Counted from the stretch's first letter, positions 44,813 through 64,000 are shown. The stretch is 64,000 nt of DNA from an uncultured Chloroflexia bacterium (GCA_963840145.1 CAWIXR010000001.1:42327-106326); one strand, 5' to 3'. Made by a program: numbers and translations. The notes: generated by a model from the letters alone, not told the origin.

Positions 44813-44836
44813 CGACGGTCCGGCGGGCACGGAAAG

Positions 44837-45771: not shown

Positions 45772-46280
45772 GGTCCGTCGAAGCGGAACCGCGTCGGGTC
45801 CCGGGTGATGTCCGTCCAGGCGATGACCTTGCGGAGCCGGATGGCGATCGCCCCGTTGCGCCGGTAGAAGGCGGCCGTCATGCCGTACTCGGGGAACTTC
45901 GCGTTCGACGCGGCAGCCAGCCGCTCGCCGAGCGCGGTGTCCACGGAGCCGAGGACCTCGGCATCGCCCTCGATCAGCACGACGTCATCGGTGCCGTCGA
46001 GGTGGATCGAGACCGCGGGATTGGCCTTCACGTCGTGGACCCAGCGCGTCTCGCCGCTGCCGCCGACAAAGATCGCCCCGTCGAGATAGAGCCCGTCGAT
46101 CGGGCGGACGCGGGGCCGCCCATCGGCGCCGACCGCCGTCAGCCAGTAGACGCGGTCGGTCGCGAGGCGCTCCTCGACGTGGCTCCACTCGACGAACGCG
46201 GTCGCGCGGCTCATGCCGTAGGAGCCGGGAATCCCCGGGCGGTCGACGCGTGGCGCCGCGAGCGATGGAGTGTCGGTCAT
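45768..46280 (-). CDS. pyridoxamine 5'-phosphate oxidase-like FMN-binding protein
   Basis: 170 aa; PPOX-like split-barrel signature (…VYWLTAVGADGRPRVRPI…). Confidence 0.7.
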   Translation of the reverse strand: MTDTPSLAAPRVDRPGIPGSYGMSRATAFVEWSHVEERLATDRVYWLTAVGADGRPRVRPIDGLYLDGAIFVGGSGETRWVHDVKANPAVSIHLDGTDDVVLIEGDAEVLGSVDTALGERLAAASNAKFPEYGMTAAFYRRNGAIAIRLRKVIAWTDITRDPTRFRFDGP

Positions 46281-46308
46281 CAGTCAATCTCGCCGGGTTC
46301 GGCGAAGG

Positions 46309-46384
46309 TGGCTCCGGCGGTAGGACTCGAACCTACGACCAAGTGATTAACAGTCACCCGCTCTACCAACTGAGCTACGCCGGA
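46309..46384 (-). tRNA. tRNA-Asn (anticodon GTT)
   Basis: Reverse complement: UCCGGCGUAGCUCAGUUGGUAGAGCGGGUGACUGUUAAUCACUUGGUCGUAGGUUCGAGUCCUACCGCCGGAGCCA. CCA is encoded. Confidence 0.9.
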
Positions 46385-46753
46385 ACGCGCGCGAACCGAC
46401 GATCAGGCGTGACCGTGGGTCGGCCGGCCGATGATACCGTCGCCTCCGAGGACCGGTCAAAACGGAGAATGTCCCGTGGTGCCCTCGCGCACTCGCGTCT
46501 GAGTCCTATTGACGCGCGTCCTGTATCGGTTCAACAATTACTGGTCCATAAAGGCTAGGGACTTCCGACCCGAACGTCCCATGATTCCTCTGATCCGAGA
46601 CGGAGGAGAAGAGCCTAGCTGCCGGCTCGCGGCGGGTTCTCTCATCGATCTCAGTGCCACTGTCCGTGCCCATTCGCGGTGCCACACCGCCGGGGTGTCA
46701 ACCGGCAGGTTGGAGCGGCTGTCGCTCCGTGCAACGCGAAGGGGGGTGATGGG

Positions 46754-48274: not shown

Positions 48275-48930
48275 CGCGCATCCTGATCGCCGAGGACGAC
48301 GGCCTGATCAGCTCGTTCATCGACAAGGGCCTGCGGGCCAGCGGCTTCTCGACGCTGATCGCCAGCGACGGCGAGGAGGCCGAGCAGTACGGGATGACCG
48401 ACGAGTTCGACCTCATCATCCTGGACATGGGCCTCCCCGAGCGCGACGGCCTCCAGGTCCTGAAGTCGCTGCGCGCGCGCGGTAAGCAGATGCCGATCCT
48501 CATCCTCACCGGGCGGCCCGAGCGCGACGTCGTGACCTGCCTCGACGCCGGCGCCGACGACTACATGCGCAAGCCCTTCCGTTTCGAGGAGCTGCTTGCC
48601 CGCGTCCGTACCAGGCTGCGCGACCGCGGCTCGCGAGAGTCGTCGGCCCTGACGGTCGGACAGGTGCACCTCGACCTTCGGACCCGCCGCGTGACGATCG
48701 ACGACCGCGTGGTCGACCTGACCGCCCGCGAGTTCAGCCTGCTCGAGACGCTCCTCCGGCATCCGGACCAGGTTCTGAGCCGGGAGCAGCTGCTATCCCA
48801 GGTGTGGGGCTACTTCTTCGACCCCACCTCGAACCTCGTCAACGTTTACGTCAACGCGCTGCGGCGGAAGCTCGGCGCCGACGTCATCGAGACGGTCCGC
48901 GGCGCGGGGTATCGGCTGCCGAAGCGCTGA
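48271..48930 (+). CDS. OmpR/PhoB-family response regulator
   Basis: VTRILIAEDDGLI…DLIILDMGLPERDG… receiver domain, then a winged-helix domain (…LTAREFSLLETLL…GYRL). GTG start overlaps the HK TGA. Confidence 0.92.
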   Translation: MTRILIAEDDGLISSFIDKGLRASGFSTLIASDGEEAEQYGMTDEFDLIILDMGLPERDGLQVLKSLRARGKQMPILILTGRPERDVVTCLDAGADDYMRKPFRFEELLARVRTRLRDRGSRESSALTVGQVHLDLRTRRVTIDDRVVDLTAREFSLLETLLRHPDQVLSREQLLSQVWGYFFDPTSNLVNVYVNALRRKLGADVIETVRGAGYRLPKR

Positions 48931-49118
48931 TCGGTCCGATCGCGGACGGTGCGCGGACGCACCGTGCCGGAGTTCAATTGTAAGGACGTTCTCACGAAAC
49001 CCTTACCGCTGACTGATGGCGCCCTTACCGAATCCTGATCGCTGACCACGAATGTCAGCGTGTGCTGAAATCATCCTCACCCCGACCCGTCCAGCTGCCG
49101 GACGTCACGCGCATCGGC

Positions 49119-52100
49119 GTGATCGTCCGGGAGCTCCTCCGCCGTGCAGGAACGTCCCCTACCGCGGCACTGGAGGTCGGGGCTGATTCGAGCTGCCTGC
49201 TTTCCGATTGCGGGCGCCCGCTGACTTCGGCTGACGACAGCTACTGCAGCCGAGCCTGTCTGCGGCGCGCGGGTCGCATCGCGCAGGCCGCCGAGCTGGC
49301 GGGACAGAGCTGCGCCAGGGACGGCTGCGAGAACCTCTTCGACGCCCGCACGAGCGGTCACCGCTTCTGCAGCAGCGCGTGTGGGATCGAGGCCCGCCGG
49401 ACCGATCGGGCACCATGGACCCACGGCCTGACGGCCGCCCCCACTCGCCTTCCCGCCAACATCCCAGCCCCCGGCCTCGTCGCCGGGGGCGTTGCACGTC
49501 TCGGCCGCGGCGCGACGCAGGTCGGTGCCGCGATCGCCGCGGGGACGGCCGCCATTGCGCGGCCCATCCGATCGGGCGTCTCGCGCGCCGGCACCGTCCT
49601 CGTTGCGGCCACGCGTCCGGTCCGGGCCGGGGTCAGTCGCGCACTGGGCCCGATTGCCCGGCGCCTCGAGCCGGTGGTGAGCCCGGTGCGCCGGTGGCTC
49701 GGAGCCCTGTACGCCAGGACGGCGCCGGCCAGGGCCGTCATCGGCCGACCACTCAGCCTTGCATGGCGCCGCACACCGCGGCGCGTTCGTGTGCCTGGCG
49801 CCCTTCTCGTCGCGACCGCATCGGTCATGGTGCTCGTGCTCTCCTTCGCGGCCGCGTCGGACTTCACCGTCAACGACACGAGCGACCGCGTCGACGCGGT
49901 CGTCGGCAATGGCGTCTGCGACGTCAACACCAGCACGTCCGGCAGCCAGTGCACCCTGCGCGCCGCCATCCAGGAGGCGAATGCGCACCCCGGCCACGAC
50001 AAGATCACGATCGAGCCGGGCCTCTACCAGCTCGCGATCCCGCCGATCAACGAGAACGCCGCGAACGTCGGCGACTTCGAGCTCCTCGACACGGTGACCA
50101 TCGAGAAGCAATGGTTCACCCTCGGCGACGTCATCATCGACGGCGGCAATCCCCTGCCGAGCGCGCCGGTCATCGCCCGCGGCATCGACCGCCTCTTCGA
50201 GGTCCACCCCGGCGCCGGTGACGTCACCATGCGCGACGTCACCCTCCAGAACGGCTTCAGCCCCGAAGAGGGCGGCGCGATCCAGAACTGGTCGCTCGGC
50301 AAGCTGACCCTCGACGGCGTGACAGTCCGCGACAACTTCGCCGAGAAGGCCGGCGGCGGCCTCAACCATGGCGACCTCAACGACTACGAGTGGGCCACCG
50401 ATCCGCCGAACCTCGACCTGCTGCCCCACGGGCGCGTCGAGGTCATCGACTCGTTCTTCACCGGCAACGGCTCGGCCGGCGGCAGCGGTGCCGCCATCAA
50501 CAACGTGTCGGGCGGCACGATCACGATCACCGGCAGCACGTTCACCCTGAACCCCGGCGCGATCATGCCGGACCCGCTCGACCCTGAGGAGTTCCTCCTC
50601 GTCGACCCGGCCGACTACCCGCTCGACGCCAGCACGATCGCCAACCAGGCCCGCTGGGAGAAGGTCGGCACGCTGCGGATCAGCAACTCGACGATCTCGC
50701 TGAACGCGGCCGAGGGCAACGGCGCCGGCATCCTCAACGAGGGCGACAGCATCGTCGAGCTCGCGAACGTCGTCCTGACCCAGAACCGCACCGGCGCCAG
50801 CGGCGGCGGCCTCTACACCGAGGGCGGCAAGGTCACGATCACCGGCGGCACGGTCTCAAAGAACCAGGCGGCGAACGGCGGCGGCCTCTACGGCGGCGGC
50901 CATGTCTCGCAGTTCGGCCTCCGCGGGACGTTCACGTTGTCGGGCGTCCAGGTCGCCGACAATATCGCCGAGAACGGCGGCGGCCTGTACAACGACGGCG
51001 ACGCCCACATGGTCGTGACCAACACGACCTTCGCGCGCAACCACTCGTCCGACCACGGCGGCGCGCTCGTCAGCGATGGCCGCGCCAGCCTTCTGCTCAG
51101 CCACGTCACGGTCACGGCCAACACCTCGAACGGCGAGGGCGGCGGCATCTGGCTGCACAGCGAGCGGATGCAGACGATCGCCGACTCGACGGTCACGCTC
51201 AACAGGGCGGGCGTCCCGGTCGTCGAGGAGGACGGCACGCTGAGCGACGACATCGCCGGCGGTGGCGGCATCCACACCGATGGCGGCCCGACGACGATCC
51301 TGCGCACCCTCATCGACAGCAACGAGGCGAATGATGAGGGCGGCGGACTCAGCCTCAACAACGCGGGCGACCTCCTGATCGCGGACAGCACGATCTCGAA
51401 CAACCGGGCATTCGACGGCGGCGGCATGGAGAACAGCGCTCGGGAGGTGACCTTCGAGCGGCTCACGGTCACCGGCAACCGTGCGGCCTCGGCCGGCGGC
51501 GGCATCCACAACACCTCGAGCGGCGAGTTCTTCATCCTCGACACGACGGTCCGCGGCAACACCGCCCAGATCGGCGGCGGGCTTGCCAACGCGCCGGACA
51601 ACAGGATCACGATCCGCGGCTCGCTCTTCCTCAATAACACGGCGCGCCTGGGGACGCCCGGCGAGGACGGCGAGCTGCCCGAGGAGGCCGGCTACGGCGG
51701 CGGCATCATGAGCTACGCCGACGGCGACTCGCTCATCGAGAACACCACGATCTCCGGCAACAAGGCCGCGGTGGCCGGCGGCGGCCTGTTCCACGACGCC
51801 GACGGCGAGCTGCGCATCGTGCACACCACGGTCTGGCGCAACTCGGCGCCGGCCGGCGGCGGCATCGGCGTCAAGGAATCCGACTTCGTGCCCGACATCC
51901 CGCCGAAGACGAACGAGGCCGTCGTCCTGAAGAACTCGATCGTCGGCGGCAGCATCCGCGGCGGCAACTGCGACTGGTACATCCGGTCGGAGGGCGGCAA
52001 CCTCGAGAGTGGCGGCGTCAACACCTGCTTCCTGGCCGTCACCCACGAGACGGCGCAGAGCCCGATTGAGCTCGGCGTCCGCGACCGCCGCGGCGACCCG

Positions 52101-55100
52101 AAGCTGCTGGCCATCGCCGACAACGGCGGGCCGACCCTGACCCACGCGCTCCTGTACGGCAGCCTCGCCATCGACTCGAGCCCCGAGCCGTGCTCGGTCG
52201 ACGACCAGCGCGGCGTCGAGCGCCCCGCGCCGAACGACACGGTCCATGACGAGATGAACCGATGCGACGCCGGCGCCTACGAGTTCGTCGGTCCGCCGCC
52301 GCCGTACGACAACGTCGCCCCCGAGACGATCTTCAACTACCCCGAGGACGGTCCTGTCCAGGATTCCCTCGAGACGATGGCGTTCACCTTCCGCGGCGAG
52401 GATCCCGCGGTCGACGCGAACAACGTCCCGGTCAACTTCACCTCGCCCGATGAGCTGAACTTCGAGTGCCGCTTCCTCGAGATCGAGCTGACCGAGGAGC
52501 CCGAGCCCGTTCCGCCGTGGGAGCCGACGCCGCCCGAGGAGATGTGGAACGGCTGCTCGAGCCCGTGGTCCGTGCCGCTGACCGAGGAAGGTCTCTTCCG
52601 CCTGGAGATCCGGGCGATCGACCGCGCCGACAACATGGACGAGACGCCGGTCAGCGTGATCATCAGCGACGTCGGCCTGGAGCCGCCCGACACCCAGATC
52701 GTCGAGGCGCCCGGCCTGACCCCCGGCACCGTCGTGCCGCCCGCTCCGGCGGAGACGCCGCAGACCAACAGCCGCGCCGCACTGTTCAGCTTCCGCGCGG
52801 TGAGCGACTTCACCCCGTCGCAGTTCGCCGAGTACGAGTGCCGCCTCGACAGCCGCGACCCGGAGCAGTGGCTCGAATGCTTCAACCCCGTGATGTACTC
52901 CGACCTGACCACGGGCCTGCACACCTTCGAGGTGCGCGCCATCGGCACCGAGCTCGGCGGCCCCGATCCGACGCCGGCCCGGTACACCTGGCGCGTCGGC
53001 CCGGATCCGGCCGGCGGAGTGCCGTTCAGCTGCGATGAGGCGAACATCACCCTGACGCCCAACGCCGACGGCTGGGCGGACCAGGTCAACCCGCTCGAGA
53101 ACTACAAGTTCGAGACGGAGCTCGACGTCCGGTCCGAGGCCAATGTGCCCGAGTCCGGCCCGACCGAGCACCGGAACGCGCGGGCCTTCATCCGCTTCGC
53201 GCTCCAGGCTGACACCGACTGCGAGCTGCAGTCGGCCACGCTGCGCATGTTCTCCGAGGGCCACACCGAGGGACGAACCCTCGTCGCGGTTCCGCTCGCC
53301 GGGCCGTTCAAGGAGAGCACGCTCACCTGGGTCAGCGCGCCGCTCGAGGTCCCGGGCGCCGTCCCGGCGCCGGTCCCCGCGGGCGAGGGCTATCGCGACT
53401 TCGACGTCACCGACCACGTGAGGGACATCCTCGCCGGCACACTGGTGAACCATGGCTGGCTCATCCGCGACGCGGTGGAGTCCGATCCCGAGGGCGGCGA
53501 CCAGACCTTCGCGTCACGCGAGCTGCCACAGGATCCGCCGGAGATCACCCTGCCTGAGCTCGAGCTGCGCTTCGCGCCGGTCGCAAGCCCGCCGCCGGCC
53601 GAGCGTGACCAGACGCTCGTCGACAAGTACGTCGAGTGCGGTGAGGTCATCACCGAGAGCGTTCGGCTCCTGGGCGACGTGACCGGCTGCCTCACCGAGG
53701 GCATCGCCATCGGCGCCCCGAACATCATCCTCGACCTGAACGGCAAGATCGTCTCGAGCGGCTTCATCCTTGAGCCGGGCGAGGAGGACAACCTCACGCC
53801 GGGCATCCGCAGCGGATACCCGAACGTCGAGATCCGCAACGGCACCGTCACGAACTTCGGCTACGGCATCCTGCTCGGTCCTGGGTCGGTGCACAGCGAA
53901 GTCCACCACATGACCCTGACCCGCAACGCCCTGACCGGCCTGCAGCTGTTCGACGCCGATAACGGGCGCCTCGGCAACACGGTCCGCGACAGCACGTTCG
54001 ACTCGAACGGCGAGACGGGCCTGCAGCTGATGAGCGGCACCGAGGGCAGCCTCATCGAGAACAACTTCTTCATCAGCAACGGGATGTCGATCCACCTCTT
54101 CGACTCCCACCGCAACACGATCCGCAACAACACGATCAGCGGGATCATCCTCGACCCGACCCTCGACTCCGACGCCGGAATCGTGGTCGAGAACGGCTCG
54201 CGCGATAACGTCCTGATCGACAACGACGTCAGCGAAACCGGTGACGCCGGCATTGTCATCCACCAGGGCTCGCACGGGAACACCGTCGTCGGCGGCATCC
54301 TCGTCCGGAACGGCGACGCCGGCGTGATCGTCCAGGATTCGGACCGCATCACGGTCGACGGCGTCCTCGCCCACCAGCAGTCGGACGGCGGCGTCGTGCT
54401 GTCGAACTCGAGCAACAGCGTCGTCAAGAACAGCGACCTGGGCTACAACCCCTCCGGCGTCGACGCATCGGGCGTGAACAACCTGCTCGTCTACAACAAC
54501 GACGTGTCGCACTCGCTCCAGGCCGGCATCGAGCTCGGCGAGGGTGTGAACATGGTCGTCACCTGCAACACGGCCAACCTGAGCGGCGGCAGCGGCATCT
54601 CGATCGAGGGCGCCACGTTCGACTCGCTGGGCGTCGCCGTCGGCGGCGCCCTGGTCACGGGCAACACGGCCAACGAGAACGCCGAGTCCGGCCTCTCGAT
54701 CGCCGTCGGCCGCCACCGGGTCGGTGGTCCGGTCATCTGCCCGGGTGGCGAGGTCATCGGCAACAACGCGAACAACAACGCCGGCTACGGCATCGACGCC
54801 GGCGAGGACCCCGTTCCGGGCGAGCCGCTCGACCCGAACCGCAACATCGACGGCGGCGGGAACCGCGCGAGCGGCAACCACGCCGACGTCGGCGTGGCCG
54901 TCGGCCTGCCGGACGCCATCCAGTGCGTGGGCGTGGTCTGCGCCGCCGGCGACGACGTGCCGATGACGCCTGAGGACCTCACCGCGCCCGAGACGATCCT
55001 TCTCGCCGGCCCGGTCGGCTCGATCCTTCCGCTGCCCGCGGGCGTTTCCACGAACAGCGAGCGCGCCGTCTTCGAGTTCACCGGCAACGACGGCCCGCAG

Positions 55101-58100
55101 GGCGACGCCCCCACCGCGCTCATCTTCGAGTGCCGCGTGGACGCGCCGCCGGATCCGGTGATCATCGAGGAGCCTGAGCTCGAGCCGCCCGATCCGGGCG
55201 AGCCGCCGGAGCTGCCCGAGCCGCCCGAGGGCGAGTTCTGGGTCGCGTGCTCCAGCCCGCTCACCTACCTGGCCCTCGAGTCCTCGATGACGCACACCTT
55301 CGAGGTGCGAGCCGTCGACCAGGCCGGGAACTTCGACCTGACCCCGATCACGTACACGTGGACGATCGAGGCTGGCGTCGAGGAGGACGGCAGCGAGGAG
55401 TGCCTGCTCGGCGAGCCGATCAGCGACACGTGCTCCGTCCTCGGGCAGGCGCCCGACACGCGGATCAGCGCCGCCCCGGGCGAGCTGATCACCGATGAGG
55501 CCGGCACCCGCTACGACACCACGAACCGCTCGGCCACGTTCCGGTTCACCGGCAGCGACAACGTCACCGCCGGGTACAACCTGGCCTACGAGTGCCGCAC
55601 CTGGTACAGCGAGCTCAACGACGCGCTCACGCCGGCGGACATCCCCTCCGACGTCGACTTCGTCCCGTGCGAGTCGCCGAAGCAGTACATCGAGCTTCCA
55701 TACGGCGGCCACATCTTCGAAGTGCGCGCGACCGATCGCGGCGGCAACACCGACGCGGAGCCTGCCTGGCACGCCTGGTGGGTCCATCCCCCGCCGCCCG
55801 ACACGACGCCTCCGGACACGGAGATCCAGTCGGGTCCCGATCCGATCACCGTGCGGACGAACGCCACGTTCACCTTCACGGGAAGCGACAACCAGACGCC
55901 GACCGGCGACCTGCTCTTCGAGTGCCGCCTCGACGGCGCGATGGATCCGCTCGCCCCGGCCGTGCCGCTATGGACCCTGTGCACCTCCGGTCACGTCGTC
56001 AACGGCCTCACCCCGGGCGATCACGTCCTGCAGGTCCGCGCCAAGGACCAGAGCGGCAACGTGGACGACGTCAACGGGCTGGTCGACGCCACCGTGACCC
56101 CTGGGGAGATGGATCCCAGCGACGGCGTGCCCGCCGCCTACACCTGGACGGTCGGCCCGACGCCGATCGCAAGGACGGTCTTCTGCGGCCAGAAGATCAC
56201 GATCAGCATCGTGCTCAACAACAACCTGGGCGATTGCATCGGCCATGGCCTGATCATCGGTGCCAACAACATCACGATCGACCTGAACGGCAAGACGATC
56301 GACGGCAAGTCGATCGGTGCGGCCATCCTGAACAACGGCTACGACTCGGTCACGATCCGCAACGGCCGACTCACCGACTTCGACTACGGCGTCATGCTCA
56401 ACAACGGCGCCCAGAACAACATCGTCGAGGGAATCACCGTCGACCTCGCCCAGGAAGCCGGCATCAGCCTCGGCCACGGCACCTTCCCGGAGGATCCGAC
56501 ACTGGCACCCAGTGAGCCCGTGCCCGGATACCAGTCCGGCGTCGACAACACGATCCTGCGTGGCAACACCATCGTCTCGAACAAGCGCGGCGTGTGGCTG
56601 GTGAACGGTGCCCGCGACAACGTCGTGCGCGGCAACCTCATCGGCGCCACGAGTGGCCCGGCCGTGTTCATCGAGCGCGCCACGGCCACCCTCGTCGAGA
56701 GCAACGACATCCAGGTCTCCAGCGACGCCGGCGTCCTGCTTGAGGGCGCGACCAACAACGTCATCCGCAACAACACGATCGCCGAGGCCGGCACCGGCGT
56801 CGAGATCAGCGACACGACGTCCGGGCCGACGGTCGGCATCGAGTCGAGCGACAACGTCGTCCAGGGCAACCACATCAGCGAGACGAGCGGTGCCGCCGTG
56901 GATATCGTCCACTCGCGCCGCAACCAGATCCTCGACAACGTCGGCACGCTGACGAACTCCGACGCGATCGAGCTGTTCTACGGGTTCGACAACGTGATCA
57001 AGGGCAACGACGTCCGTGGCAACAAGGGCGGCATCAGCCTGAAGAACTCGACCGGCAACACGATCGAGGCCAACAACACCAGCAACTCGGATGGGACGGG
57101 AATCTCGCTCGAGTCGCAGTCGTTCGCCAACGTGATCGTCAACAACATCTCGAACAACAACGTCGGCGGCGGCATCTACATCGGTGACGAGACGCCGGCC
57201 GGCCAGGGAACCCTCGTCCAAGGCAACACCACGAACGGGAACAAGGAAGCCGGCATCAAGGCAACGAAGCCGGCCCACATCTTCAAGGACAACGTCTCGT
57301 TCGACAACGACAGCTGGGGCATCTACGTCGGCGACCCGTCGAACGGGCGCGCCAACATCGACGGCGGCGGCAACCGCGCGCAGGGCAACCTCGGCCCACT
57401 CGGCATCGACCTGAAGCCGCAGCAGTGCTACAACATCACCTGCCTCGGCGGCGAGGGCGGCGGCGACGGGATCCCGCCGAACACGAACATCCTCGAGGGA
57501 CCGATCCAGCCTGTCAGCAGCGAGAGCCTCGCCACCTTCCGCTTCAGCGGCGCCGACAACGCCAGCCCGGTTACCTTCGAGTGCCGCTTTGACAGCGCCC
57601 TCGAGACCGCCTGGGAGGCCTGCGCCAGCCCGAAGACCTACACGAACCTCGTCAACGACACGTACACCTTCGAGGTGCGCGCCGTCGACTTCTCCGGCAA
57701 CACCGATGAGACGCCCGCCAGCTACACGTTCGCCGTGGAGCTTGGCGACTTCGAGGCCTTCATCGACGCGAGCCCGGACAGGGCGACCGTCGAGACGAGC
57801 GCGACCTTCGAGTTCTCGTCCAACCGCCAGAGCGGTGTCACCTTCCAGTGCCTGCTCGTCGACCCGCTGACCGTCCTCACGACGGCGACGTGGGCTGCAG
57901 CGCCTGTCTGCACCTCACCGATCAGCTACACCGATCTCGCGGTCGGCGGCCACGAGTTCTGGCTGCGCGCGACCGGTCCGTCGGACGCCTACAGCACGAA
58001 GATGTACGCCTGGACCATCGGTCCTGCGCCCGTCCCGGCCGAGGTCTCGTGCGGCCAGGTCCTCATGCAGAGCACGCGCGTGCTCAACGACCTCGTCGAC

Positions 58101-61100
58101 TGCGGCGGCTACGCCCTGATCGTCGGCGCGCCCGGCATCACGATCGACCTCGACGGGCACGTCCTCGACGGCCTCGGGCTCGACGCCGGCGTCCTGAACA
58201 ACGGGCATGACGACGTCACGATCAAGAACGGGCTCATCACCCAGTTCCTGTACGGCGTCCAGCTCAACGCGGGCACCGCGCGCAACGTCGTGCACTCGCT
58301 GCGGCTCGAGGCGAACGAGGAGGCGGCGATCGCCCTCTCCGACGCCGACCAGGGCGCCGACGGCAACCTGATCCGCGACAACTCGATCGTCGGCAACGAG
58401 GTCGGCATCGCCCTCTACACCGGGACGCGGCACGCCGTGATCCGCAACAACGACCTGGGCGCCAACCAGGGCGAGGGCGGCATCTATCTCGAGTTCGCCA
58501 GCGACAACCTCATCGAGCACAACGAGATCTCGATGAGCGGCGGCGGCGGCATCTTCATGATCGGCGGCGGCAACAACGTCGTCACCGACAACGTGCTCAA
58601 GGAGAACGGCGGCTACGGGATCGTGGCCGGCGAGGAGCTGCTGCCCTCCAACAACAACCTCATCCAGCGCAACGAGGTCGAGGGCGGCCAGGGCGGCGTC
58701 CTCGTCGGCGGCAACAACAACACCGTCATCAACAACTCGATCACCGGCGTGACGGGCCCCGGCGTCGCCGTCGAGCTCGCCAACAACACCCTGGTCAAGG
58801 GCAACGACTTCATGGGCAGCGCCGGCGGCGTCTCGGTCGGCGAGGCGAACGGCACGACGATCGTCGCCAACAACGCCAGCGGCACGCTGGGCGCGGGCAT
58901 CGAGATCGGCGAGCTGTCGCTCGACACGATCGTCCGCGACAACACGGCCAGCGGTAACGGCGGCGCCGGCATCGAGATCACCGAGTCCTCCGTCCTCGAT
59001 CGCGGCTCGCTCGTCGAGAACAACACGGCCGACGCCAACGGCGGCGACGGCATCTACGTCGAGGGCGCCGGTCACCGCGTCGTGAACAACGAGGCCAAGC
59101 TGAACGGCGGATGGGGCATCTACTCCGTCGGCGCCGTCGATGGCGGAGGCAACCTCGCCGCGGGCAACATGGAGCCCGAGCAGTGCTTCGGCATCGTCTG
59201 CGAGCTCGGCACGGTCCCCGGCGCTCCGGAGACCTGGATCATCGCCAAGCCGGCCGACTGGAACGCGGGCGTCGAGGGCGTCCAGAGCCCGAGCCGCAAC
59301 GTCAGCTTCACGTACATGGCCTCGGACGACTTCTCGCCGATCACCGACATCGTCTTCGAGTGCCGTCTCGACAACGACAACCCGCTCGCGTGGGAGGACT
59401 GCGAGTACCCCGCCGAGTACCTGAACCTCGGTCCGGGCACCCACAAGTTCGAGGTCCGCGCGATCGACATGCTGGGCCAGGGCCTGGCCGATCCCACGCC
59501 GGCCGTGTTCGAGTGGGCGTACGAGCCGCTGCCGAGCGGCGTCGCGCCCGAGGTGACGATCGACGTCACCCCGGTCGACACCGACCCGCTGAAGCCCGGC
59601 GTGCAGACGTGGATGGTCGACTCGATCTTCACCTTCTCCGCGAACGAGCCCGACGTCACCTTCCAGTGCAAGGTCGACGCGAACGGCTACGAGCCGTGCG
59701 GGTTCGAGGCGGCGCAGTTCATGAACCAGGGCGCCTTCGAGTGGGGCCTGAACGAGACCGAGGTCGGGAACCACACCTTCTTCGTCCGCGCCATCGACTT
59801 CGAGGGCAACGTCAGCGCGCCTGAGACCTTCGTCTGGGAGCTGCTCGGCGTCAACGTCGTCTTCACGAGCGGCCCGGGCTTCACCCCGGCCACCGGCGGC
59901 CCGGCGGGCGACCCCGCCACCGGCGGCATGACCTCCAGCACCTCGGCGATGATCGAGTTCGAGGCCAACGTCGGCGACGCGACCTTCTGGTGCCGGTTCG
60001 ACAGCATCGATCCGGGCGGGTACTTCCCGTGCGAGTCGCCGTTCCTGGCCGGGCCGGCCTTCGCCGCCCAGACGGAGTTCCCGGAGCCGCTGCTGGCCGG
60101 CGACCACACCCTCGAGGTGTACGGCGAGTCCGAGCTCTACGGCTCGGCGGCCGAGCTCGAGCCCGCGATCTACGAGTGGGAGGTCGTCGACCCGGTTGAC
60201 GGCAGCCCGCCCAACACGACGATCGAGCGCGCCCCGGCGGGCCAGGTCACCAACCCGGACAACACGCTGAGCTCCACGACGTTCGAGTTCGTCGGTCTCG
60301 ACGACCTCACGCCGGACTTCCTGCTCCTGTTCGAGTGCCAGGTCACCAACGGCACCGAGCTGCCCAACGAGCTCGAGTGGATCGAGTGCACGAGCCCGTT
60401 CAACCTGCTCGACGTCTACTCGTACGCCGATCCGCAGATGGCAATCGGCGTGGAGCACACCTTCTGGGTGCGCGCCGTCGATACCTTCGAGCCGGAGTTC
60501 CCGGATCCGACGCAGCCCGAGTTCGAGGGCAACCCCGATCCGACCCCGGACTTCCACACCTGGACGCCGATCGCCGACACGCGCGGCCCGATCACCACGA
60601 TCTCCGCCGGACCGGCGAATGGCGCCACCGTCGGTGAGGAGGTCGAGCCGTACATGTTCTTCGGCCTCGACGACGCGACCCCGCTGCACCTGCTCACGTT
60701 CGAGTGCCAGGCCTACGTCACGGCGGCCGGCCCCGACCCGCAGGGCTGGGAGACGTGCGAGACCACGGTCGACAGCGGCTGGGAGCTCAGCGTGCCTGAG
60801 CCGGGCGCCTACACCGTCGCGATCCGCGCCACCGACATGGCCAACAACGTGGGCATCGCCGCCACGCGACTCGTGACCGTCGCGGCCGCCCCCGTCGTGA
60901 CCTTCATCACCGGCCCGGCCGGCCGGCTCGATCCGGTCTCCGGCGAGCCCGACGGCGCCAGCCAGACCGAGAACGCGGTCTTCACCTTCACCTCAGACCA
61001 GCCCGGCTCGACGTTCGAGTGCTCCTTCGAGGGCGACTTCCTGCCCTGCGGCGGCCTCAGCGACCCGGCGACGGGCGCGGCATGGGTCGTCGAGACCGGC

Positions 61101-64000
61101 GAGAACGAGTTCATCGTTCGCGCGACGAACCCGCAGGGCATCGTCGGCGAGGAGGCGGTCTACGCCTGGCTGACCGAGCTCGGTCCCGACGTCGTCGAGC
61201 CCAACTCGAGCTTCACGTTCGGGCCCGAGAGCGGCACGCTGTTGCAGGAGGCGACCTTCGTCTTCAGCGGCACCGACAACCGGACGCCGGCGGGCGACCT
61301 GAGCTTCGAGTGCGCGCTCGACTCCACGACCGCGTGGAACTCGTGCACCTCGCCCGAGATGTTCAGCGACCTGACCCGCGGCTCCCACACGCTCCGCCTG
61401 CGCGCGGTCGACGCGGCCGGCAACATCGAGTCCACCCCGGATACGTACACCTGGGTCGTGGCACCGCCGCCGGTGGCGACGATCCTGTCCGGGCCTGGCG
61501 TCGACATCGAAGAGACGCAGGACCGCGACGCCACGTTCACGTTCAGCTCGGACGTGCCCGGCTCGACCTTCCATTGCTGGCTCGACGGCAAGTACAACCC
61601 CGGCACGCCTGGCGGCGTCCTGGGCACCGAGCCGCTGCCGTGCACCTCTCCGATCACCTACGAGAACCTCGGCTACGGCGAGCACCTGTTCGCGGTCATC
61701 GCAATCGATCCGTTCGGCAACATGGGCCTGGAGTGGGAGGATGCCGAGTTCATCGTGACCCCGCCGGATGCCCGGATCCTCTCCGCGCCGGCAAGCGGCA
61801 CGACCACGACCGCGGTGTTCGAGTTCACCAGCGAACCGTTCGAGGCCGATTCGGTCTTCTACTGCTCGCTCGACGATCGGCCCTTCGGCCTCTGCACGGC
61901 CGAGCCGGTCGCCGGCCAGCCGGGCGTCTACCGCAAGACGTACACGAACCTGCACCCGGGTGAGCACGTCTTCCAGGTCCAGACCCTCTTCACCGGCCTC
62001 GACTGGATGGGTCTGCCCTTCGAGTTCGAGCCGATCCCCGCGATGCACACCTGGACGGTGCAGGACTTCACCGATCCGGACACGGCCATCGACTTCGGCC
62101 CACCGGCCACGACGCTCAGCACGAGCGCCTACCTGATGGTCAGCTCCGACGACCCGACCGCGACGATCGAGTGCGAGCTGACCGGTCCCACGGGCACCGA
62201 GTCCGGCGAGTGCGAGCCCGGCGTGGTGACCGAGTTCACCGACCTCGTGCCAGGCGACTACACGTTCAGCGCGGTCGCCACCGACCTCTCCGGCAACGTC
62301 GACGAGACCCCAGCGACCCATTCGTGGACGATCCAGGTCGCCGGCGCCCCGAACACCAACGTCGGCGAGAACGTGATCGTCACGATCGGGAACGTCAGCG
62401 TCTCCTTCTTCAGCGTCGACACGGCCGGCACCACGATCGCCGATCGCATCTTCGCGGGCCCGCCGCTGCCCGAGGGCTACGCCGGCGCCAGCACGCACAT
62501 CTACGACATCCAGACCTCGGCCGAGTACTCGGAGCCGATCAACATCTGCATCAGCTACGACCCGGCCGACTTCGAGGGTGCACAGTCTCTGCGCCTGCTC
62601 CAGTTCGATAGCGAGCTGTGGATCGACGTCACGACCCTCCACAACCCGTTCGTGTCGCCGGCCCGCATCTGCAGCAACATCGCCGAGGACTTCGGGCTCT
62701 TCGCGATCGCGATCGCCTCGACCGGCTCGGCGCCGGAAACCTCGATCTTCTCCGGTCCGGAGGGTCCGCTCGGGCCTGAGGGCGTGCCCACCTCGACCAG
62801 CGGCTCGGCGACGTTCGAGTTCTGGACCGATCAGCCCAACGCGATCACGCAGTGCTCGCTCGACGGCGATCCGTGGTTCTACTGCGAGTCGCCGCTGACC
62901 GTCGGCCCGCTCGAGGAGGGCGGCCACGAGTTCTGGGTCCAGGCGATCAACGAGTTCGGCTGGATGGACCTGACGCCTGCCATCTTCGAGTGGGAGGTTC
63001 TCGGGCCCGACGTCACCCCGCCGACGACGATCATCACCGGCGGCCCGCCGGAGGGCTCGTCCACCCCGAACTTCATCAGCATGTTCACCTTCAGCGGCGC
63101 CGATGACATGACGCCGTCCCTCGAGCTCGACTTCGAGTGCACGCTCGACGGCGTGAACCTGGGCGGCTGCGATCCGCTCCTCGAAGAGATCGAGGTGGAG
63201 ACCCCTGGCCCGCACCAGCTCATCGTTCAGGCGATCGATGCCGCGGACAACATGGACCCGGTCGGCGCCATCCGGAACTGGACCGTCATCGACATGTCAG
63301 GTCCCGACACGGAGATCATCCTCGGTCCTGAGGAGGAGACGACCGAGACGAGCGCCACGTTCGAGTTCGAGGGCTTCGAGCTCCTGAACGACCTGCCCGT
63401 CAACGAGTTCGAGTGCGCCCTGGACGACGGCGAGTTCACGCCGTGCACCACCCCGCACGTCATCCCCGGCCCGCTGGGCGGCGGCGTGCACGTCTTCCAC
63501 GTTCGCGCGGTCGATCCCGACGGCAACCGCGACATCTCGCCGGCCTTCTACGAGTGGCTGATCCTCGGCCCCGAGGACACCACGCCGCCGGAGACCTTCA
63601 TCCACGTGTTCCCGGATCAGGCCAACTCCGGCCCGGACGTCATCTTCGGCTTCGCCAGCAATGAGCCGGTCGAGAGCTTCGAGTGCGCGTACGGCGACGG
63701 CCCGCCGCCGGCAGAGATGCCGACGCAGTGGGAAGAGTGCGATGTCGTCTGGGTGCTCGAGGCGCTCGATTCCGGCCCGCACTGGCTGTGGGTCCGTGCC
63801 CTCGACGTCGCCGAGATCCCGAATGTCGATCCGACGCCCGCCGGCGCAAGCCGTGGCTTCCCGGCCGGCAGCGTCGACACCGCACCGTTCGTGTGGGTCA
63901 CGACCGGCGAGCCCGAGACCTTCATCGACGATGGTCCGGACGACCCGACGGGCGCCTACACCGCGACCTTCCACTTCCACTCCGACCAGGCCGACGCGAC
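49119..64000 (+). CDS. Giant multi-modular surface protein, partial (frame 0 open from the stop at 49014-49016 to beyond the window end; >4,900 aa here). The start is uncertain: in-frame GTGs at 49062, 49119 or 49791.
   Basis: No frame-0 stop anywhere from 49017 to 64000; frame continuity checked at 49863, 52461, 55125 and 63408. Consistent sense-strand homology-like motifs throughout. The ORF track omits it because it has no stop in the window. Confidence 0.8.
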   Translation, partial: MIVRELLRRAGTSPTAALEVGADSSCLLSDCGRPLTSADDSYCSRACLRRAGRIAQAAELAGQSCARDGCENLFDARTSGHRFCSSACGIEARRTDRAPWTHGLTAAPTRLPANIPAPGLVAGGVARLGRGATQVGAAIAAGTAAIARPIRSGVSRAGTVLVAATRPVRAGVSRALGPIARRLEPVVSPVRRWLGALYARTAPARAVIGRPLSLAWRRTPRRVRVPGALLVATASVMVLVLSFAAASDFTVNDTSDRVDAVVGNGVCDVNTSTSGSQCTLRAAIQEANAHPGHDKITIEPGLYQLAIPPINENAANVGDFELLDTVTIEKQWFTLGDVIIDGGNPLPSAPVIARGIDRLFEVHPGAGDVTMRDVTLQNGFSPEEGGAIQNWSLGKLTLDGVTVRDNFAEKAGGGLNHGDLNDYEWATDPPNLDLLPHGRVEVIDSFFTGNGSAGGSGAAINNVSGGTITITGSTFTLNPGAIMPDPLDPEEFLLVDPADYPLDASTIANQARWEKVGTLRISNSTISLNAAEGNGAGILNEGDSIVELANVVLTQNRTGASGGGLYTEGGKVTITGGTVSKNQAANGGGLYGGGHVSQFGLRGTFTLSGVQVADNIAENGGGLYNDGDAHMVVTNTTFARNHSSDHGGALVSDGRASLLLSHVTVTANTSNGEGGGIWLHSERMQTIADSTVTLNRAGVPVVEEDGTLSDDIAGGGGIHTDGGPTTILRTLIDSNEANDEGGGLSLNNAGDLLIADSTISNNRAFDGGGMENSAREVTFERLTVTGNRAASAGGGIHNTSSGEFFILDTTVRGNTAQIGGGLANAPDNRITIRGSLFLNNTARLGTPGEDGELPEEAGYGGGIMSYADGDSLIENTTISGNKAAVAGGGLFHDADGELRIVHTTVWRNSAPAGGGIGVKESDFVPDIPPKTNEAVVLKNSIVGGSIRGGNCDWYIRSEGGNLESGGVNTCFLAVTHETAQSPIELGVRDRRGDPKLLAIADNGGPTLTHALLYGSLAIDSSPEPCSVDDQRGVERPAPNDTVHDEMNRCDAGAYEFVGPPPPYDNVAPETIFNYPEDGPVQDSLETMAFTFRGEDPAVDANNVPVNFTSPDELNFECRFLEIELTEEPEPVPPWEPTPPEEMWNGCSSPWSVPLTEEGLFRLEIRAIDRADNMDETPVSVIISDVGLEPPDTQIVEAPGLTPGTVVPPAPAETPQTNSRAALFSFRAVSDFTPSQFAEYECRLDSRDPEQWLECFNPVMYSDLTTGLHTFEVRAIGTELGGPDPTPARYTWRVGPDPAGGVPFSCDEANITLTPNADGWADQVNPLENYKFETELDVRSEANVPESGPTEHRNARAFIRFALQADTDCELQSATLRMFSEGHTEGRTLVAVPLAGPFKESTLTWVSAPLEVPGAVPAPVPAGEGYRDFDVTDHVRDILAGTLVNHGWLIRDAVESDPEGGDQTFASRELPQDPPEITLPELELRFAPVASPPPAERDQTLVDKYVECGEVITESVRLLGDVTGCLTEGIAIGAPNIILDLNGKIVSSGFILEPGEEDNLTPGIRSGYPNVEIRNGTVTNFGYGILLGPGSVHSEVHHMTLTRNALTGLQLFDADNGRLGNTVRDSTFDSNGETGLQLMSGTEGSLIENNFFISNGMSIHLFDSHRNTIRNNTISGIILDPTLDSDAGIVVENGSRDNVLIDNDVSETGDAGIVIHQGSHGNTVVGGILVRNGDAGVIVQDSDRITVDGVLAHQQSDGGVVLSNSSNSVVKNSDLGYNPSGVDASGVNNLLVYNNDVSHSLQAGIELGEGVNMVVTCNTANLSGGSGISIEGATFDSLGVAVGGALVTGNTANENAESGLSIAVGRHRVGGPVICPGGEVIGNNANNNAGYGIDAGEDPVPGEPLDPNRNIDGGGNRASGNHADVGVAVGLPDAIQCVGVVCAAGDDVPMTPEDLTAPETILLAGPVGSILPLPAGVSTNSERAVFEFTGNDGPQGDAPTALIFECRVDAPPDPVIIEEPELEPPDPGEPPELPEPPEGEFWVACSSPLTYLALESSMTHTFEVRAVDQAGNFDLTPITYTWTIEAGVEEDGSEECLLGEPISDTCSVLGQAPDTRISAAPGELITDEAGTRYDTTNRSATFRFTGSDNVTAGYNLAYECRTWYSELNDALTPADIPSDVDFVPCESPKQYIELPYGGHIFEVRATDRGGNTDAEPAWHAWWVHPPPPDTTPPDTEIQSGPDPITVRTNATFTFTGSDNQTPTGDLLFECRLDGAMDPLAPAVPLWTLCTSGHVVNGLTPGDHVLQVRAKDQSGNVDDVNGLVDATVTPGEMDPSDGVPAAYTWTVGPTPIARTVFCGQKITISIVLNNNLGDCIGHGLIIGANNITIDLNGKTIDGKSIGAAILNNGYDSVTIRNGRLTDFDYGVMLNNGAQNNIVEGITVDLAQEAGISLGHGTFPEDPTLAPSEPVPGYQSGVDNTILRGNTIVSNKRGVWLVNGARDNVVRGNLIGATSGPAVFIERATATLVESNDIQVSSDAGVLLEGATNNVIRNNTIAEAGTGVEISDTTSGPTVGIESSDNVVQGNHISETSGAAVDIVHSRRNQILDNVGTLTNSDAIELFYGFDNVIKGNDVRGNKGGISLKNSTGNTIEANNTSNSDGTGISLESQSFANVIVNNISNNNVGGGIYIGDETPAGQGTLVQGNTTNGNKEAGIKATKPAHIFKDNVSFDNDSWGIYVGDPSNGRANIDGGGNRAQGNLGPLGIDLKPQQCYNITCLGGEGGGDGIPPNTNILEGPIQPVSSESLATFRFSGADNASPVTFECRFDSALETAWEACASPKTYTNLVNDTYTFEVRAVDFSGNTDETPASYTFAVELGDFEAFIDASPDRATVETSATFEFSSNRQSGVTFQCLLVDPLTVLTTATWAAAPVCTSPISYTDLAVGGHEFWLRATGPSDAYSTKMYAWTIGPAPVPAEVSCGQVLMQSTRVLNDLVDCGGYALIVGAPGITIDLDGHVLDGLGLDAGVLNNGHDDVTIKNGLITQFLYGVQLNAGTARNVVHSLRLEANEEAAIALSDADQGADGNLIRDNSIVGNEVGIALYTGTRHAVIRNNDLGANQGEGGIYLEFASDNLIEHNEISMSGGGGIFMIGGGNNVVTDNVLKENGGYGIVAGEELLPSNNNLIQRNEVEGGQGGVLVGGNNNTVINNSITGVTGPGVAVELANNTLVKGNDFMGSAGGVSVGEANGTTIVANNASGTLGAGIEIGELSLDTIVRDNTASGNGGAGIEITESSVLDRGSLVENNTADANGGDGIYVEGAGHRVVNNEAKLNGGWGIYSVGAVDGGGNLAAGNMEPEQCFGIVCELGTVPGAPETWIIAKPADWNAGVEGVQSPSRNVSFTYMASDDFSPITDIVFECRLDNDNPLAWEDCEYPAEYLNLGPGTHKFEVRAIDMLGQGLADPTPAVFEWAYEPLPSGVAPEVTIDVTPVDTDPLKPGVQTWMVDSIFTFSANEPDVTFQCKVDANGYEPCGFEAAQFMNQGAFEWGLNETEVGNHTFFVRAIDFEGNVSAPETFVWELLGVNVVFTSGPGFTPATGGPAGDPATGGMTSSTSAMIEFEANVGDATFWCRFDSIDPGGYFPCESPFLAGPAFAAQTEFPEPLLAGDHTLEVYGESELYGSAAELEPAIYEWEVVDPVDGSPPNTTIERAPAGQVTNPDNTLSSTTFEFVGLDDLTPDFLLLFECQVTNGTELPNELEWIECTSPFNLLDVYSYADPQMAIGVEHTFWVRAVDTFEPEFPDPTQPEFEGNPDPTPDFHTWTPIADTRGPITTISAGPANGATVGEEVEPYMFFGLDDATPLHLLTFECQAYVTAAGPDPQGWETCETTVDSGWELSVPEPGAYTVAIRATDMANNVGIAATRLVTVAAAPVVTFITGPAGRLDPVSGEPDGASQTENAVFTFTSDQPGSTFECSFEGDFLPCGGLSDPATGAAWVVETGENEFIVRATNPQGIVGEEAVYAWLTELGPDVVEPNSSFTFGPESGTLLQEATFVFSGTDNRTPAGDLSFECALDSTTAWNSCTSPEMFSDLTRGSHTLRLRAVDAAGNIESTPDTYTWVVAPPPVATILSGPGVDIEETQDRDATFTFSSDVPGSTFHCWLDGKYNPGTPGGVLGTEPLPCTSPITYENLGYGEHLFAVIAIDPFGNMGLEWEDAEFIVTPPDARILSAPASGTTTTAVFEFTSEPFEADSVFYCSLDDRPFGLCTAEPVAGQPGVYRKTYTNLHPGEHVFQVQTLFTGLDWMGLPFEFEPIPAMHTWTVQDFTDPDTAIDFGPPATTLSTSAYLMVSSDDPTATIECELTGPTGTESGECEPGVVTEFTDLVPGDYTFSAVATDLSGNVDETPATHSWTIQVAGAPNTNVGENVIVTIGNVSVSFFSVDTAGTTIADRIFAGPPLPEGYAGASTHIYDIQTSAEYSEPINICISYDPADFEGAQSLRLLQFDSELWIDVTTLHNPFVSPARICSNIAEDFGLFAIAIASTGSAPETSIFSGPEGPLGPEGVPTSTSGSATFEFWTDQPNAITQCSLDGDPWFYCESPLTVGPLEEGGHEFWVQAINEFGWMDLTPAIFEWEVLGPDVTPPTTIITGGPPEGSSTPNFISMFTFSGADDMTPSLELDFECTLDGVNLGGCDPLLEEIEVETPGPHQLIVQAIDAADNMDPVGAIRNWTVIDMSGPDTEIILGPEEETTETSATFEFEGFELLNDLPVNEFECALDDGEFTPCTTPHVIPGPLGGGVHVFHVRAVDPDGNRDISPAFYEWLILGPEDTTPPETFIHVFPDQANSGPDVIFGFASNEPVESFECAYGDGPPPAEMPTQWEECDVVWVLEALDSGPHWLWVRALDVAEIPNVDPTPAGASRGFPAGSVDTAPFVWVTTGEPETFIDDGPDDPTGAYTATFHFHSDQADA
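49209..49380 (+). other. Giant protein N-terminal cytoplasmic module: two YacG-like zinc-ribbon repeats (C-x4-C…YCSRAC and C-x3-C…FCSSAC)
   Basis: Frame-0 translation: …CLLSDCGRPLTSADDSYCSRACLRRAGRIAQAAELAGQSCARDGCENLFDARTSGHRFCSSACGIEARR…. Confidence 0.5.
49791..49862 (+). other. Giant protein single TM / signal-anchor segment, preceded by a ~130-aa Ala/Arg/Gly-rich low-complexity linker (49440-49790)
   Basis: …WRRTPRRVRVPGALLVATASVMVLVLSFAAASDFTVNDTS…. Confidence 0.55.
49863..52290 (+). other. Giant protein module 1: ~800-aa right-handed beta-helix with Pmp-like GGG(L/I) repeats. It has choice-of-anchor-Q-like boundaries (N-terminal G-x-C-T-L-R-A-A-I-x-E-A-N; C-terminal DQRGVERP…CDAGAYEF).
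   Basis: About 14 GGGL/GGGI turns (AGGGLNHGD, GGGLYTEGG, NGGGLYGGG, GGGIWLHS, GGGGIHTDG, GGGLSLNN, GGGMENS, GGGIHNTS, GGGLANAP, GGGIMSYA, GGGLFHDA, GGGIGVKE…). Confidence 0.65.
53630..54960 (+). other. Giant protein NosD-like parallel beta-helix block A (PbH1 repeats)
   Basis: Entry motif VECGEVITESVRLLGDVTGC…IILDLNGKIV…NVEIRNGTVTNFGYGILL. Exit cap NIDGGGNRASGNHADVGVAV…IQCVGVVCA. Confidence 0.65.
56180..57470 (+). other. Giant protein NosD-like parallel beta-helix block B
   Basis: VFCGQKITISIVLNNNLGDCIGHGLIIGANNITIDLNGKTIDG…VTIRNGRLTDFDYGVML. Exit cap NIDGGGNRAQGNLGPLGIDLKPQQCYNITCLGG. Confidence 0.65.
58040..59215 (+). other. Giant protein NosD-like parallel beta-helix block C
   Basis: VSCGQVLMQSTRVLNDLVDCGGYALIVGAPGITIDLDGHVLDG…VTIKNGLITQFLYGVQL. 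Exit cap VDGGGNLAAGNMEPEQCFGIVCELG. Confidence 0.65.
59220..64000 (+). repeat. Tandem array (>14 copies here; further copies at 52330-53010, 54960-56150 and 57470-58020) of an ~85-aa two-cysteine module with signature (A/V)(T/V)FxF(S/T)x(S/N)D…(F/L)EC(R/x)(L/V)D…(W/F)xxC(T/S)SP…LxxGxHxFxVRA(I/V)DxAGNxDxTPAxYxWxV
   Basis: Protein-level repeats read in frame 0. Examples: ATFRFSGADNASPVTFECRFDSALETAWEACASPKTYTNLVNDTYTFEVRAVDFSGNTDETPASYTF (57510-57740) and ATFEFEGFELLNDLPVNEFECALDDGEFTPCTTPHVIPGPLGGGVHVFHVRAVDPDGNRDISPAFYEWLI (63350-63570). Confidence 0.7.

Follow-up and report, generated by a model that had tools for sequence, protein, structure and literature searches.

Long tandem arrays of Ig/FN3-like extender domains combined with ligand-binding regions are found in SiiE of Salmonella, in the 1.5-MDa ice-binding protein MpIBP, in the LapA-type RTX adhesins and in Giant1-5 of Apilactobacillus kunkeei. 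The DNA analysed here, a stretch of 64,000 nucleotides from an uncultured Chloroflexia bacterium (the window), carries a large part of a gene for a protein of similar build, and the extenders of SiiE and MpIBP match its tandem modules in Foldseek searches. Unlike the giant RTX adhesins, however, the window protein contains neither RTX repeats nor a C-terminal signal for type I secretion and appears instead to be equipped with an N-terminal Sec signal. Moreover, whereas giant adhesins have near-identical repeats, its modules are old and divergent (mean identity 32%) and are interspersed with parallel beta-helix blocks.

Several other described systems share parts of this architecture. Methanosarcina surface proteins and disaggregatase also combine DNRLRE/CBM96 domains with parallel beta-helix repeats and are secreted or located at the surface, but they are archaeal, much shorter and devoid of an Ig-like array, and the Disaggr_repeat model leaves only a trace in the CBM96 region of the window protein (13.5 bits against a cut-off of 33.9, E 0.059). 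The chlamydial Pmp proteins have the Chlam_PMP repeat in common with its N-terminal helix, yet the window protein lacks an autotransporter barrel and its host is apparently monoderm. The domain model named for OmpL47 of Leptospira is matched by the window protein as a whole (122 bits), whereas the OmpL47 equivalog is clearly missed (17.7 bits vs 250). Finally, Actinomycetota proteins annotated as CSLREA, choice-of-anchor Q or 'right-handed parallel beta-helix repeat-containing' show the same domain order at 48-72% identity; different from these orthologues, the window copy alone has an in-frame zinc-ribbon extension.

Our literature search found no experimental work on proteins of this family. 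The giant protein is large and unstudied, yet it is not a new kind of system but a giant modular extracellular protein, whose major module types all belong to named families and whose orthologues are already public under automatic names. An earlier note on this DNA, made from the sequence alone, had considered the protein impossible to place as a whole and possibly not catalogued, which was overstated; its proviso that all domains might turn out to be already described nearly applies at the domain level. All but a few module types have their match among the curated Pfam or NCBIfam families. NRPS/PKS assembly-line domains are the most abundant ones in Actinobacteria proteins of more than 5,000 aa (PMC11573180), and a conserved, non-enzymatic-looking protein of ~6,900 aa is a less common type for this group. 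As the family is present in cultured Nocardioides strains it could be amenable to genetic study. The gene also exemplifies how long-read metagenome assemblies shatter genes of this size, which illustrates why they are missed; on a contig of 99.3% identity described below, it is divided among at least four gene calls. In addition, the protein points to two gaps in the curated models, namely a divergent two-cysteine Ig-like module and an unmodelled domain, here called X. Interest in the family would rise if its beta-helix blocks were catalytic or if the zinc-ribbon fusion were real.

Extent of the giant gene and its orthologues

The window carries the first ~70% of one real giant gene (Table 1). 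As the earlier note had stated, its reading frame is free of stops from 49017 to the window end, by which it is cut; the nearest in-frame stop upstream ends at 49016. With a G+C content of 70% in the window, GC by codon position in this frame amounts to 0.63, 0.49 and 0.94 for the first, second and third position, respectively, a pattern that strongly indicates coding sequence. In other frames over the giant gene, shadow ORFs reach at most 924 aa, and the longest antisense ones stay below 930 aa.

Table 1. Features of the giant gene and of the region upstream of it. Positions are those of the window; residues are numbered in the 49017 frame.
Feature	Position	Strand	Residues	Basis or remark
Two-component system (HK + RR)	46679..48930	+		Pfam; orthologous pairs upstream of homologues
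HAMP/HisKA histidine kinase	46679-48274	+		Pfam
OmpR-type response regulator	48271-48930	+		Pfam; GTGA overlap with kinase gene
Giant-gene open reading frame	49017..63998	+		4,994 codons, stop-free; GC3 0.94; colinear with orthologues L001, L002, L003, L004, L006, L007
Two tandem Cys4 motifs, putative zinc-ribbon pair	49194..49382	+		C-x4-C-x11-YCSxxC and C-x4-C-x13-FCSxxC; lineage-specific, translation uncertain
Alternative GTG starts 49674, 49677, 49686	49674..49688	+		Start list; a start here would give the family-typical N-terminus
Basic RRTPRRVR, hydrophobic VPGALLVATASVMVLVLSF, then AAA↓S	49767..49874	+	~251-286	Putative Sec signal peptide (or a signal anchor, should the long N-terminus be real)
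CSLREA-like N-cap	49863-49982	+		CSLREA_Nterm 19.1 bits vs 25
Pmp-like parallel beta-helix, ~800 aa	49875..52301	+	287-1095	Chlam_PMP, NosD, choice_anch_Q HMMs; homologue names
Choice-of-anchor Q C-cap	52095-52286	+	1027-1090 (match)	choice_anch_Q 60 bits vs 25
FEC (two-cysteine Ig-like) modules M1-M2	52320..52997	+		Module HMM
CBM96/DNRLRE beta-sandwich	53031..53549	+	1339-1511	PF24517 57.2 bits; NF033679 54.7 bits
PbH block A, NosD/CASH-type, Cys-pair entry and exit caps	53637..54941	+	1541-1975	Beta_helix 125 bits, NosD 75.5 bits, motifs
FEC modules M3-M5	55011..56153	+		Module HMM
PbH block B	56184..57443	+	2390-2809	Beta_helix 102 bits, NosD 85.8 bits, motifs
FEC modules M6-M7	57477..58019	+		Module HMM
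PbH block C	58050..59201	+	3012-3395	Motifs, HMMs, AlphaFold2 model
FEC modules M8-M17	59226..62333	+		Module HMM; M17 modelled as all-beta sandwich, pLDDT 83-96
X domain, 133 aa, all-beta, one Cys pair	62334..62732	+	4440-4572	Between M17 and M18; without curated HMM match
FEC modules M18-M21 and start of M22 (cut by window end)	62733..63998	+		Module HMM

Near-identical DNA tandem repeats were not found in the giant gene, the repeats present being two short arrays and, within the N-terminal helix, an 81-nt repeat of 1.9 copies, and collapse during assembly is therefore unlikely. An independent assembly, contig_29634 of the ENA metagenome ERZ25039541 (L011), is 99.3% identical to window positions 43580-58925 with 24 indels; on this contig the giant gene is broken into at least four gene calls and the gene caller placed its start at ATG 49827. 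We reject a repeat assembly artefact in view of the lack of near-identical repeats, the low mutual identity of the modules (14-47%) and the agreement of the second assembly. Likewise, the concern raised in the earlier note that an overlooked stop or frameshift might have joined several genes did not materialise, since at least five genomes contain colinear, unbroken orthologues across the same span.

A genome scan identified orthologues in Nocardioides gansuensis WSJ-1, N. astragali CGMCC 4.7327, a Thermoleophilaceae MAG and other MAGs. Over 3,802 alignment columns, residues 1202-4994 of the window protein are colinear with the N. gansuensis ORF and 72% identical to it, and the colinear orthologues of L006 and L007 are 60% and 48% identical, so that identity ranges overall from 48 to 72% over 2,400-3,800 aa; L003 and L004 are colinear as well but frameshifted. 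The single modules are closer to their counterparts in an orthologue (54-84% identity for L001) than to their paralogues in the same protein (maximum 47%), which argues for an ancient, positionally conserved module array.

The orthologues extend ~1,919 aa past the window edge, a tail that adds 15-16 modules, another copy of X and two CBM96 domains, one of which forms the end of the protein. By extrapolation, ~5.7 kb more of the gene are expected beyond the window end, and the complete window protein is predicted to measure ~6,900 aa (~700 kDa) and to contain ~37 modules. The C-termini of five orthologues end in '...LVLTF(R/K)PAP' or similar, which does not conform to LPXTG, and the orthologue C-termini show no LPXTG motif, SLH domain, RTX repeat, C-terminal transmembrane segment or barrel domain. 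Neither the window protein nor the C-terminal 1,971 aa of an orthologue contain an autotransporter beta-barrel translocator; SLH or other S-layer anchor domains are equally absent from the window protein and the orthologue tail; and as regards RTX, there is no HemolysinCabind match and Ca_tandemer scores 21 bits against 50, the orthologues ending in CBM96 instead. We reject an assignment to the autotransporters, RTX adhesins, LPXTG proteins or S-layer proteins, as the defining domains or signals were not found in the window part of the protein or in the orthologue C-termini.

Architecture of the encoded protein

FEC modules were located by an HMM iterated from a single module, which finds 21 complete copies in the window and one that is truncated by the window end (M22). 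From the N- to the C-terminus the protein consists of the Pmp-like helix, M1-M2, CBM96, PbH-A, M3-M5, PbH-B, M6-M7, PbH-C, M8-M17, X, M18-M21 and the partial M22. This is exactly the order read in the earlier note (two modules, sandwich, block A, three, block B, two, block C and an array of at least 14 broken by an insert), and the distinct insert it had seen within the module array corresponds to X. Downstream of the hydrophobic segment there are 68 cysteines, which lie in close local twos and add up to an even number in each module or cap; pairing of this kind suggests that they may be disulfide-bonded. The ectodomain is acidic (pI ~4.05) and poor in lysine (0.9% overall).

The N-terminal helix scores 37.3 bits against Chlam_PMP (PF02415) when scanned alone (cut-off 20.6) and 32.3 bits against the NosD model, and it carries a choice_anch_Q domain (NF041518) by a match that more than doubles the required score. 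CSLREA_Nterm (TIGR04214), in contrast, stays below its cut-off (E 8.7e-4), although homologues of this block with 50-65% identity are automatically named CSLREA domain-containing or choice-of-anchor Q in NCBI and JGI. A PDB sequence search with the block gave no significant match. These scores agree with the earlier description of a Pmp-type helix delimited by choice-of-anchor-Q-like caps, and all three cap motifs named there are located in this helix (CTLRAAI at aa 312, DQRG at aa 1063 and CDAGAYE at aa 1083).

PbH-A, -B and -C qualify as members of the right-handed parallel beta-helix or NosD-CASH superfamily (PF13229, PF05048), with 102-125 bits for Beta_helix (cut-off 25.9) and 75-101 bits for NosD (cut-off 23.6), and both models exceed their cut-offs in each of the blocks, as the HMM check proposed in the earlier note had anticipated. 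Each block also has the entry motif (CGE/CGQ ... LDLNG/IDLNG/IDLDG; at aa 1541, 2390 and 3012) and the exit motif (DGGGN ... QC..(V/I).C; at aa 1945, 2782 and 3375) that had been noticed before. The blocks are 31-37% identical in pairwise comparison, which, together with the shared caps, fits an old duplication of one capped cassette as already proposed. The AlphaFold2 model of PbH-C, obtained along the lines of the structure prediction suggested earlier, is a 397-residue parallel beta-helix with a pLDDT of 96.3, whose fold neighbours comprise polysaccharide depolymerases, AlgE4, NosD, PL6 lyases and the adhesin PfbA. The blocks are not orthologues of NosD, the periplasmic maturation protein of nitrous oxide reductase, because the score for the family model TIGR04247 (NosD_copper_fam) is 80.4 bits against a cut-off of 300; in addition, no nos genes were seen among the scanned neighbours in the window (ParAB, HK/RR, MOSC).

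The FEC modules follow the consensus P.T.I...P...A.F.F...FEC.LD...C..P...L..G.H.F.VRA.D..GN.D..PA..W, in which the two cysteines are invariant in every module. The OmpL47-type domain model (NF047446), for which the whole protein exceeds the cut-off of 40 bits threefold, is matched by only 3 of the 21 single modules (E<=0.01). Big_13 and Y_Y_Y are matched by the modules collectively but more weakly than the OmpL47-type domain, single modules remaining below the Pfam cut-offs. The scarcity of single-module matches leads us to regard FEC as a divergent Ig-like subfamily that is poorly covered by curated models. In an AF2 model of M17-X-M18 both modules are confident beta-sandwiches (pLDDT 80-96) of Ig/FN3-like type, which answers the structural check proposed for them in the earlier note, and the best Foldseek matches of this model in the PDB are tandem Ig/FN3 arrays including SiiE, MpIBP and the Y_Y_Y domain of BT4663.

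The beta-sandwich-like module of ~190 aa described in the earlier note turned out to be a CBM96/DNRLRE domain according to two HMMs (PF24517, cut-off 26; NF033679, cut-off 34), both of which score well above threshold. The founding member of CBM96 binds to internal alginate chains, and lyases for alginate, hyaluronate and pectate as well as disaggregatase carry DNRLRE/CBM96 domains (PMC9971899); the first descriptions of DNRLRE and PbH1-type repeats came from cell-surface and S-layer proteins of archaea (PMC2447325; PMC9971899). It is doubtful that the window domain binds polyanions as the founding member does, because it is acidic and the ectodomain contains so little lysine. A PDB sequence search with the window CBM96 returned no match and hence no alignment to the ligand-binding lysines of the founding member.

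X has no match in Pfam or NCBIfam, nothing usable appearing even at E<=10, and its AF2 model is all-beta but of low confidence (pLDDT 55-75), too low to assign it a fold. In a library of 1.84 billion proteins, by contrast, matches with E<=1e-3 occur in 1,922 cluster representatives, frequently at several places in one protein, and the matching proteins also carry TSP_3, SpaA, Big_13 or CBM96. Judged by these matches, X is a widespread, presumably extracellular domain without a curated model. It is kept in all orthologues, the second copy lying further downstream.

N-terminus, proposed function and alternatives

In relatives of the giant protein a basic tail and a hydrophobic segment are followed by an AxA site directly before (F/L)TVNxTxDxxDA, and the family-wide N-terminus thus looks like a short cleavable Sec signal peptide rather than the TM/signal anchor proposed in the earlier note. 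The closest metagenome relative (L012) is similar from about 'PVRRW' onwards, where the cluster of alternative GTG starts is located. The stretch further upstream, for which the earlier note had claimed YacG-like zinc ribbons, did not live up to this description: Pfam and NCBIfam scans of the N-terminus gave no significant match even at E<=10, the best match of the zinc-ribbon region in a PDB sequence search has an E value of 0.45 and is not significant, and a metagenome scan with this N-terminus found no relative. Codon usage of the stretch is only marginally coding.

What, then, might such a protein do? We give an even chance to the reading that it is an extracellular, Sec-exported and disulfide-stabilised fibre that attaches to or organises polysaccharide. 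According to this proposal a monoderm, high-GC soil bacterium would export a protein of ~6,900 aa through the Sec pathway, in which a signal peptide, presumably cleaved off, precedes a string of independently folded domains held by disulfide bonds. The Pmp-like helix, the three NosD/CASH-type beta-helices and three CBM96 domains, two of them predicted from the orthologues, would present polysaccharide-recognising surfaces, the ~37 Ig/FN3-like two-cysteine modules would act as rigid spacers, and two copies of the unnamed X domain would be included. What the extended fibre attaches to or organises may be the matrix of the cell itself or soil polymers of plant, fungal or microbial origin. The link to carbohydrate is drawn from the fold neighbours of the PbH blocks, from alginate binding by the founding CBM96 and from the occurrence of DNRLRE domains in lyases, disaggregatase and S-layer proteins (PMC9971899; PMC2447325). 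Since no attachment device was found in the window protein or in the orthologue C-termini, the protein may be released instead of being bound to the surface. The giant polysaccharide-interacting surface protein envisaged in the earlier note agrees with the fold searches as a general reading, its S-layer-like variant being unsupported, as no SLH domain was found.

Would the beta-helices merely bind polysaccharide, or could they cleave or modify it? At least one of the four beta-helix blocks might be an active depolymerase, lyase or C5-epimerase, with the CBM96 domains targeting it and the Ig-like modules as spacers, in the manner of AlgE epimerases, PL6 lyases, archaeal disaggregatase or phage tailspike depolymerases. 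Such a multi-catalytic polysaccharide enzyme, which we consider rather unlikely, would be in keeping with the prevalence of enzymes among the structural neighbours of the PbH block, with the faint trace of Disaggr_repeat in the CBM96 region and with the lyases and disaggregatase to which CBM96/DNRLRE domains are joined elsewhere (PMC9971899). Identity to each enzyme neighbour is however only 10-20% (12-18% for the AlgE4 A-module, AlgG, PL6 lyases and phage capsule depolymerases), DPHD-type and related epimerase motifs occur in none of the blocks, and the blocks match the generic NosD and Beta_helix models but no enzyme-family model in Pfam or NCBIfam. Moreover, NosD and PfbA, neither of which is a glycan-cleaving enzyme, are equally good fold neighbours, and solved beta-helix structures are biased to enzymes, which further weakens the argument from structural neighbourhood. 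A different arrangement is conceivable as well, in which the protein is the building block of an S-layer or sheath and self-assembles into a lattice around the cell. The acidity of the protein is a trait common to S-layer proteins, among which DNRLRE and PbH1-type repeats were first described, along with archaeal cell-surface proteins (PMC2447325; PMC9971899). Then again, an S-layer anchoring domain such as SLH was not found, a ~700 kDa beads-on-a-string protein with 37 spacers is typical of fibrous adhesins and not of lattice subunits, and several relatives have a tandem paralogue of different architecture (in L002, L005 and L006 a second large paralogue with Chlam_PMP, CBM96, NosD or Big_13 follows directly). 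We therefore hold this arrangement to be extremely improbable.

A fibre could also stay with the cell if translation began further upstream. With a GTG start at 49062 or 49119 the product would be a type II membrane protein made up of a cytoplasmic double zinc ribbon, a basic linker (pI ~11.7), one TM helix and the ectodomain, an arrangement by which the fibre would be anchored or else linked to a partner in the cytoplasm and which would account for retention at the cell without LPXTG or SLH. Such a start would lie 132-189 nt past the stop of the response regulator gene, a normal intergenic distance. The two Cys4 motifs, which match in their spacing and share the signature [YF]CSxxC, are the sole motifs of this kind in the six frames of the 64-kb window and lie in the frame of the giant ORF with no stop between; the second assembly (L011) shows no difference in this stretch, and frame +0 is the best of six by codon usage across 49062-49826. 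Yet the codon log-odds over this region are ~0 as compared to 0.6 downstream, and GC3 is 0.73-0.90 as opposed to at least 0.93 after 49797. The zinc ribbon is missing from 38 of 38 related loci checked (L008-L010, L012-L046), in many of which an in-frame stop precedes the match by 26-184 codons, and it has no relative among HMMs, PDB sequences or metagenomes. In addition, the start chosen by the gene caller on the near-identical contig lies downstream of it, and the hydrophobic segment is followed by a site of the AAA↓S cleavage type. Genuine translation of the double zinc ribbon as part of the giant protein thus ranges, in our estimate, from unlikely to a tentative possibility, and the type II arrangement as a whole, anchoring and coupling included, we judge decidedly unlikely. 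Were the ribbon translated, an ectodomain of ~6,600 aa would be tethered by the TM helix to a cytoplasmic metal-binding module and might serve as a receptor or anchor that couples the fibre to its partner, which is likewise a long shot.

Upstream two-component system

Whichever start is used, the giant gene lies directly downstream of the genes for a histidine kinase and an OmpR-type response regulator. Orthologous pairs are located upstream of giant-gene homologues at L009 and L008, the arrangement thus recurring in three lineages including that of the window, with identities of 73% and 63%, respectively, for the response regulator and of 58% and 51% for the kinase. This synteny makes the pair a candidate for the control of the fibre protein, whose expression it probably, or at least possibly, governs. 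At L010 a different two-component system is found at the same place.

Translation signals and the second assembly of the locus

Upstream of the giant gene, the stop codon of the histidine kinase gene overlaps the start of the response regulator gene (GTGA, window 48260-48274), and a GGAGG Shine-Dalgarno sequence is located 7 nt upstream of this overlap. The kinase/regulator junction offers a clean case of translational coupling. The giant gene, in contrast, has no recognisable Shine-Dalgarno sequence before any of its candidate starts. A second assembly of the locus (L011; ENA ERZ25039541 contig_29634, 129 kb) was compared with window positions 38376-58925 and proved to be near-identical: identity is 99.3%, and 15 kb of alignment contain 24 indels. 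The giant gene is broken into at least four gene calls on this contig, the first of which begins at the equivalent of ATG 49827. L011 provides a concrete case in which long-read indels hide giant genes.

The X domain, Pro-rich loops and neighbouring paralogues

The X domain, inserted between FEC modules M17 and M18, has no Pfam or NCBIfam model, and orthologues of the giant protein hold a second copy of it, for example at amino acids 4391-4486 in the orthologue L001. It is matched by 1,922 cluster representatives at E<=1e-3, and the matching proteins often carry two to five copies each, beside TSP_3, SpaA, Big_13 or CBM96 domains. We regard it as a candidate for curation as a new domain family. 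Among the two-cysteine Ig-like FEC modules, M1 also contains acidic Pro-rich insertions, which resemble the Pro/Glu-rich loop of M3.

In three related loci (L002, L005 and L006) the giant gene is directly followed by a second large paralogous gene encoding Chlam_PMP, CBM96, NosD or Big_13 domains, and in a fourth (L008) an inverted Big_13/CBM96 gene lies upstream of the giant-gene homologue. Members of this family tend to occur in clusters.

Features of the window and of related loci
Feature	Position	Strand	Remark
FtsZ	10526-11836	-	within dcw-type cluster
FtsA, bona fide	11971-13260	-	PF14450 at 1.2e-40; SHS2_FTSA at 9.5e-32
ParA and ParB partition genes	41681-43565	+	~5.5 kb upstream of giant gene
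9-nt repeat, 5.4 copies, inside M3	55181-55229	+	encodes Pro/Glu-rich loop PELEPPDPGEPPELPEPPEG
X domain, 133 aa	62334-62732	+	all-beta, one Cys pair
Paralogue after giant gene	L002 17421-21281		
Paralogue after giant gene	L005 10129-13434		
Paralogue after giant gene	L006 17015-18817		

Genomic setting and host

With ParA and ParB nearby, the giant-gene locus may be origin-proximal. FtsA is not known from the class Actinomycetes, and its presence in the window therefore suggests that the host may be a deep-branching member of the Actinomycetota (e.g. Thermoleophilia) or belong to another monoderm phylum. Given such a host, lateral transfer could be the source of the 72% identity between the giant gene and its Nocardioides orthologues. 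MurG, MraY and an FtsI-type PBP accompany FtsZ and FtsA (10526-13260, minus strand) in the dcw-type cluster.
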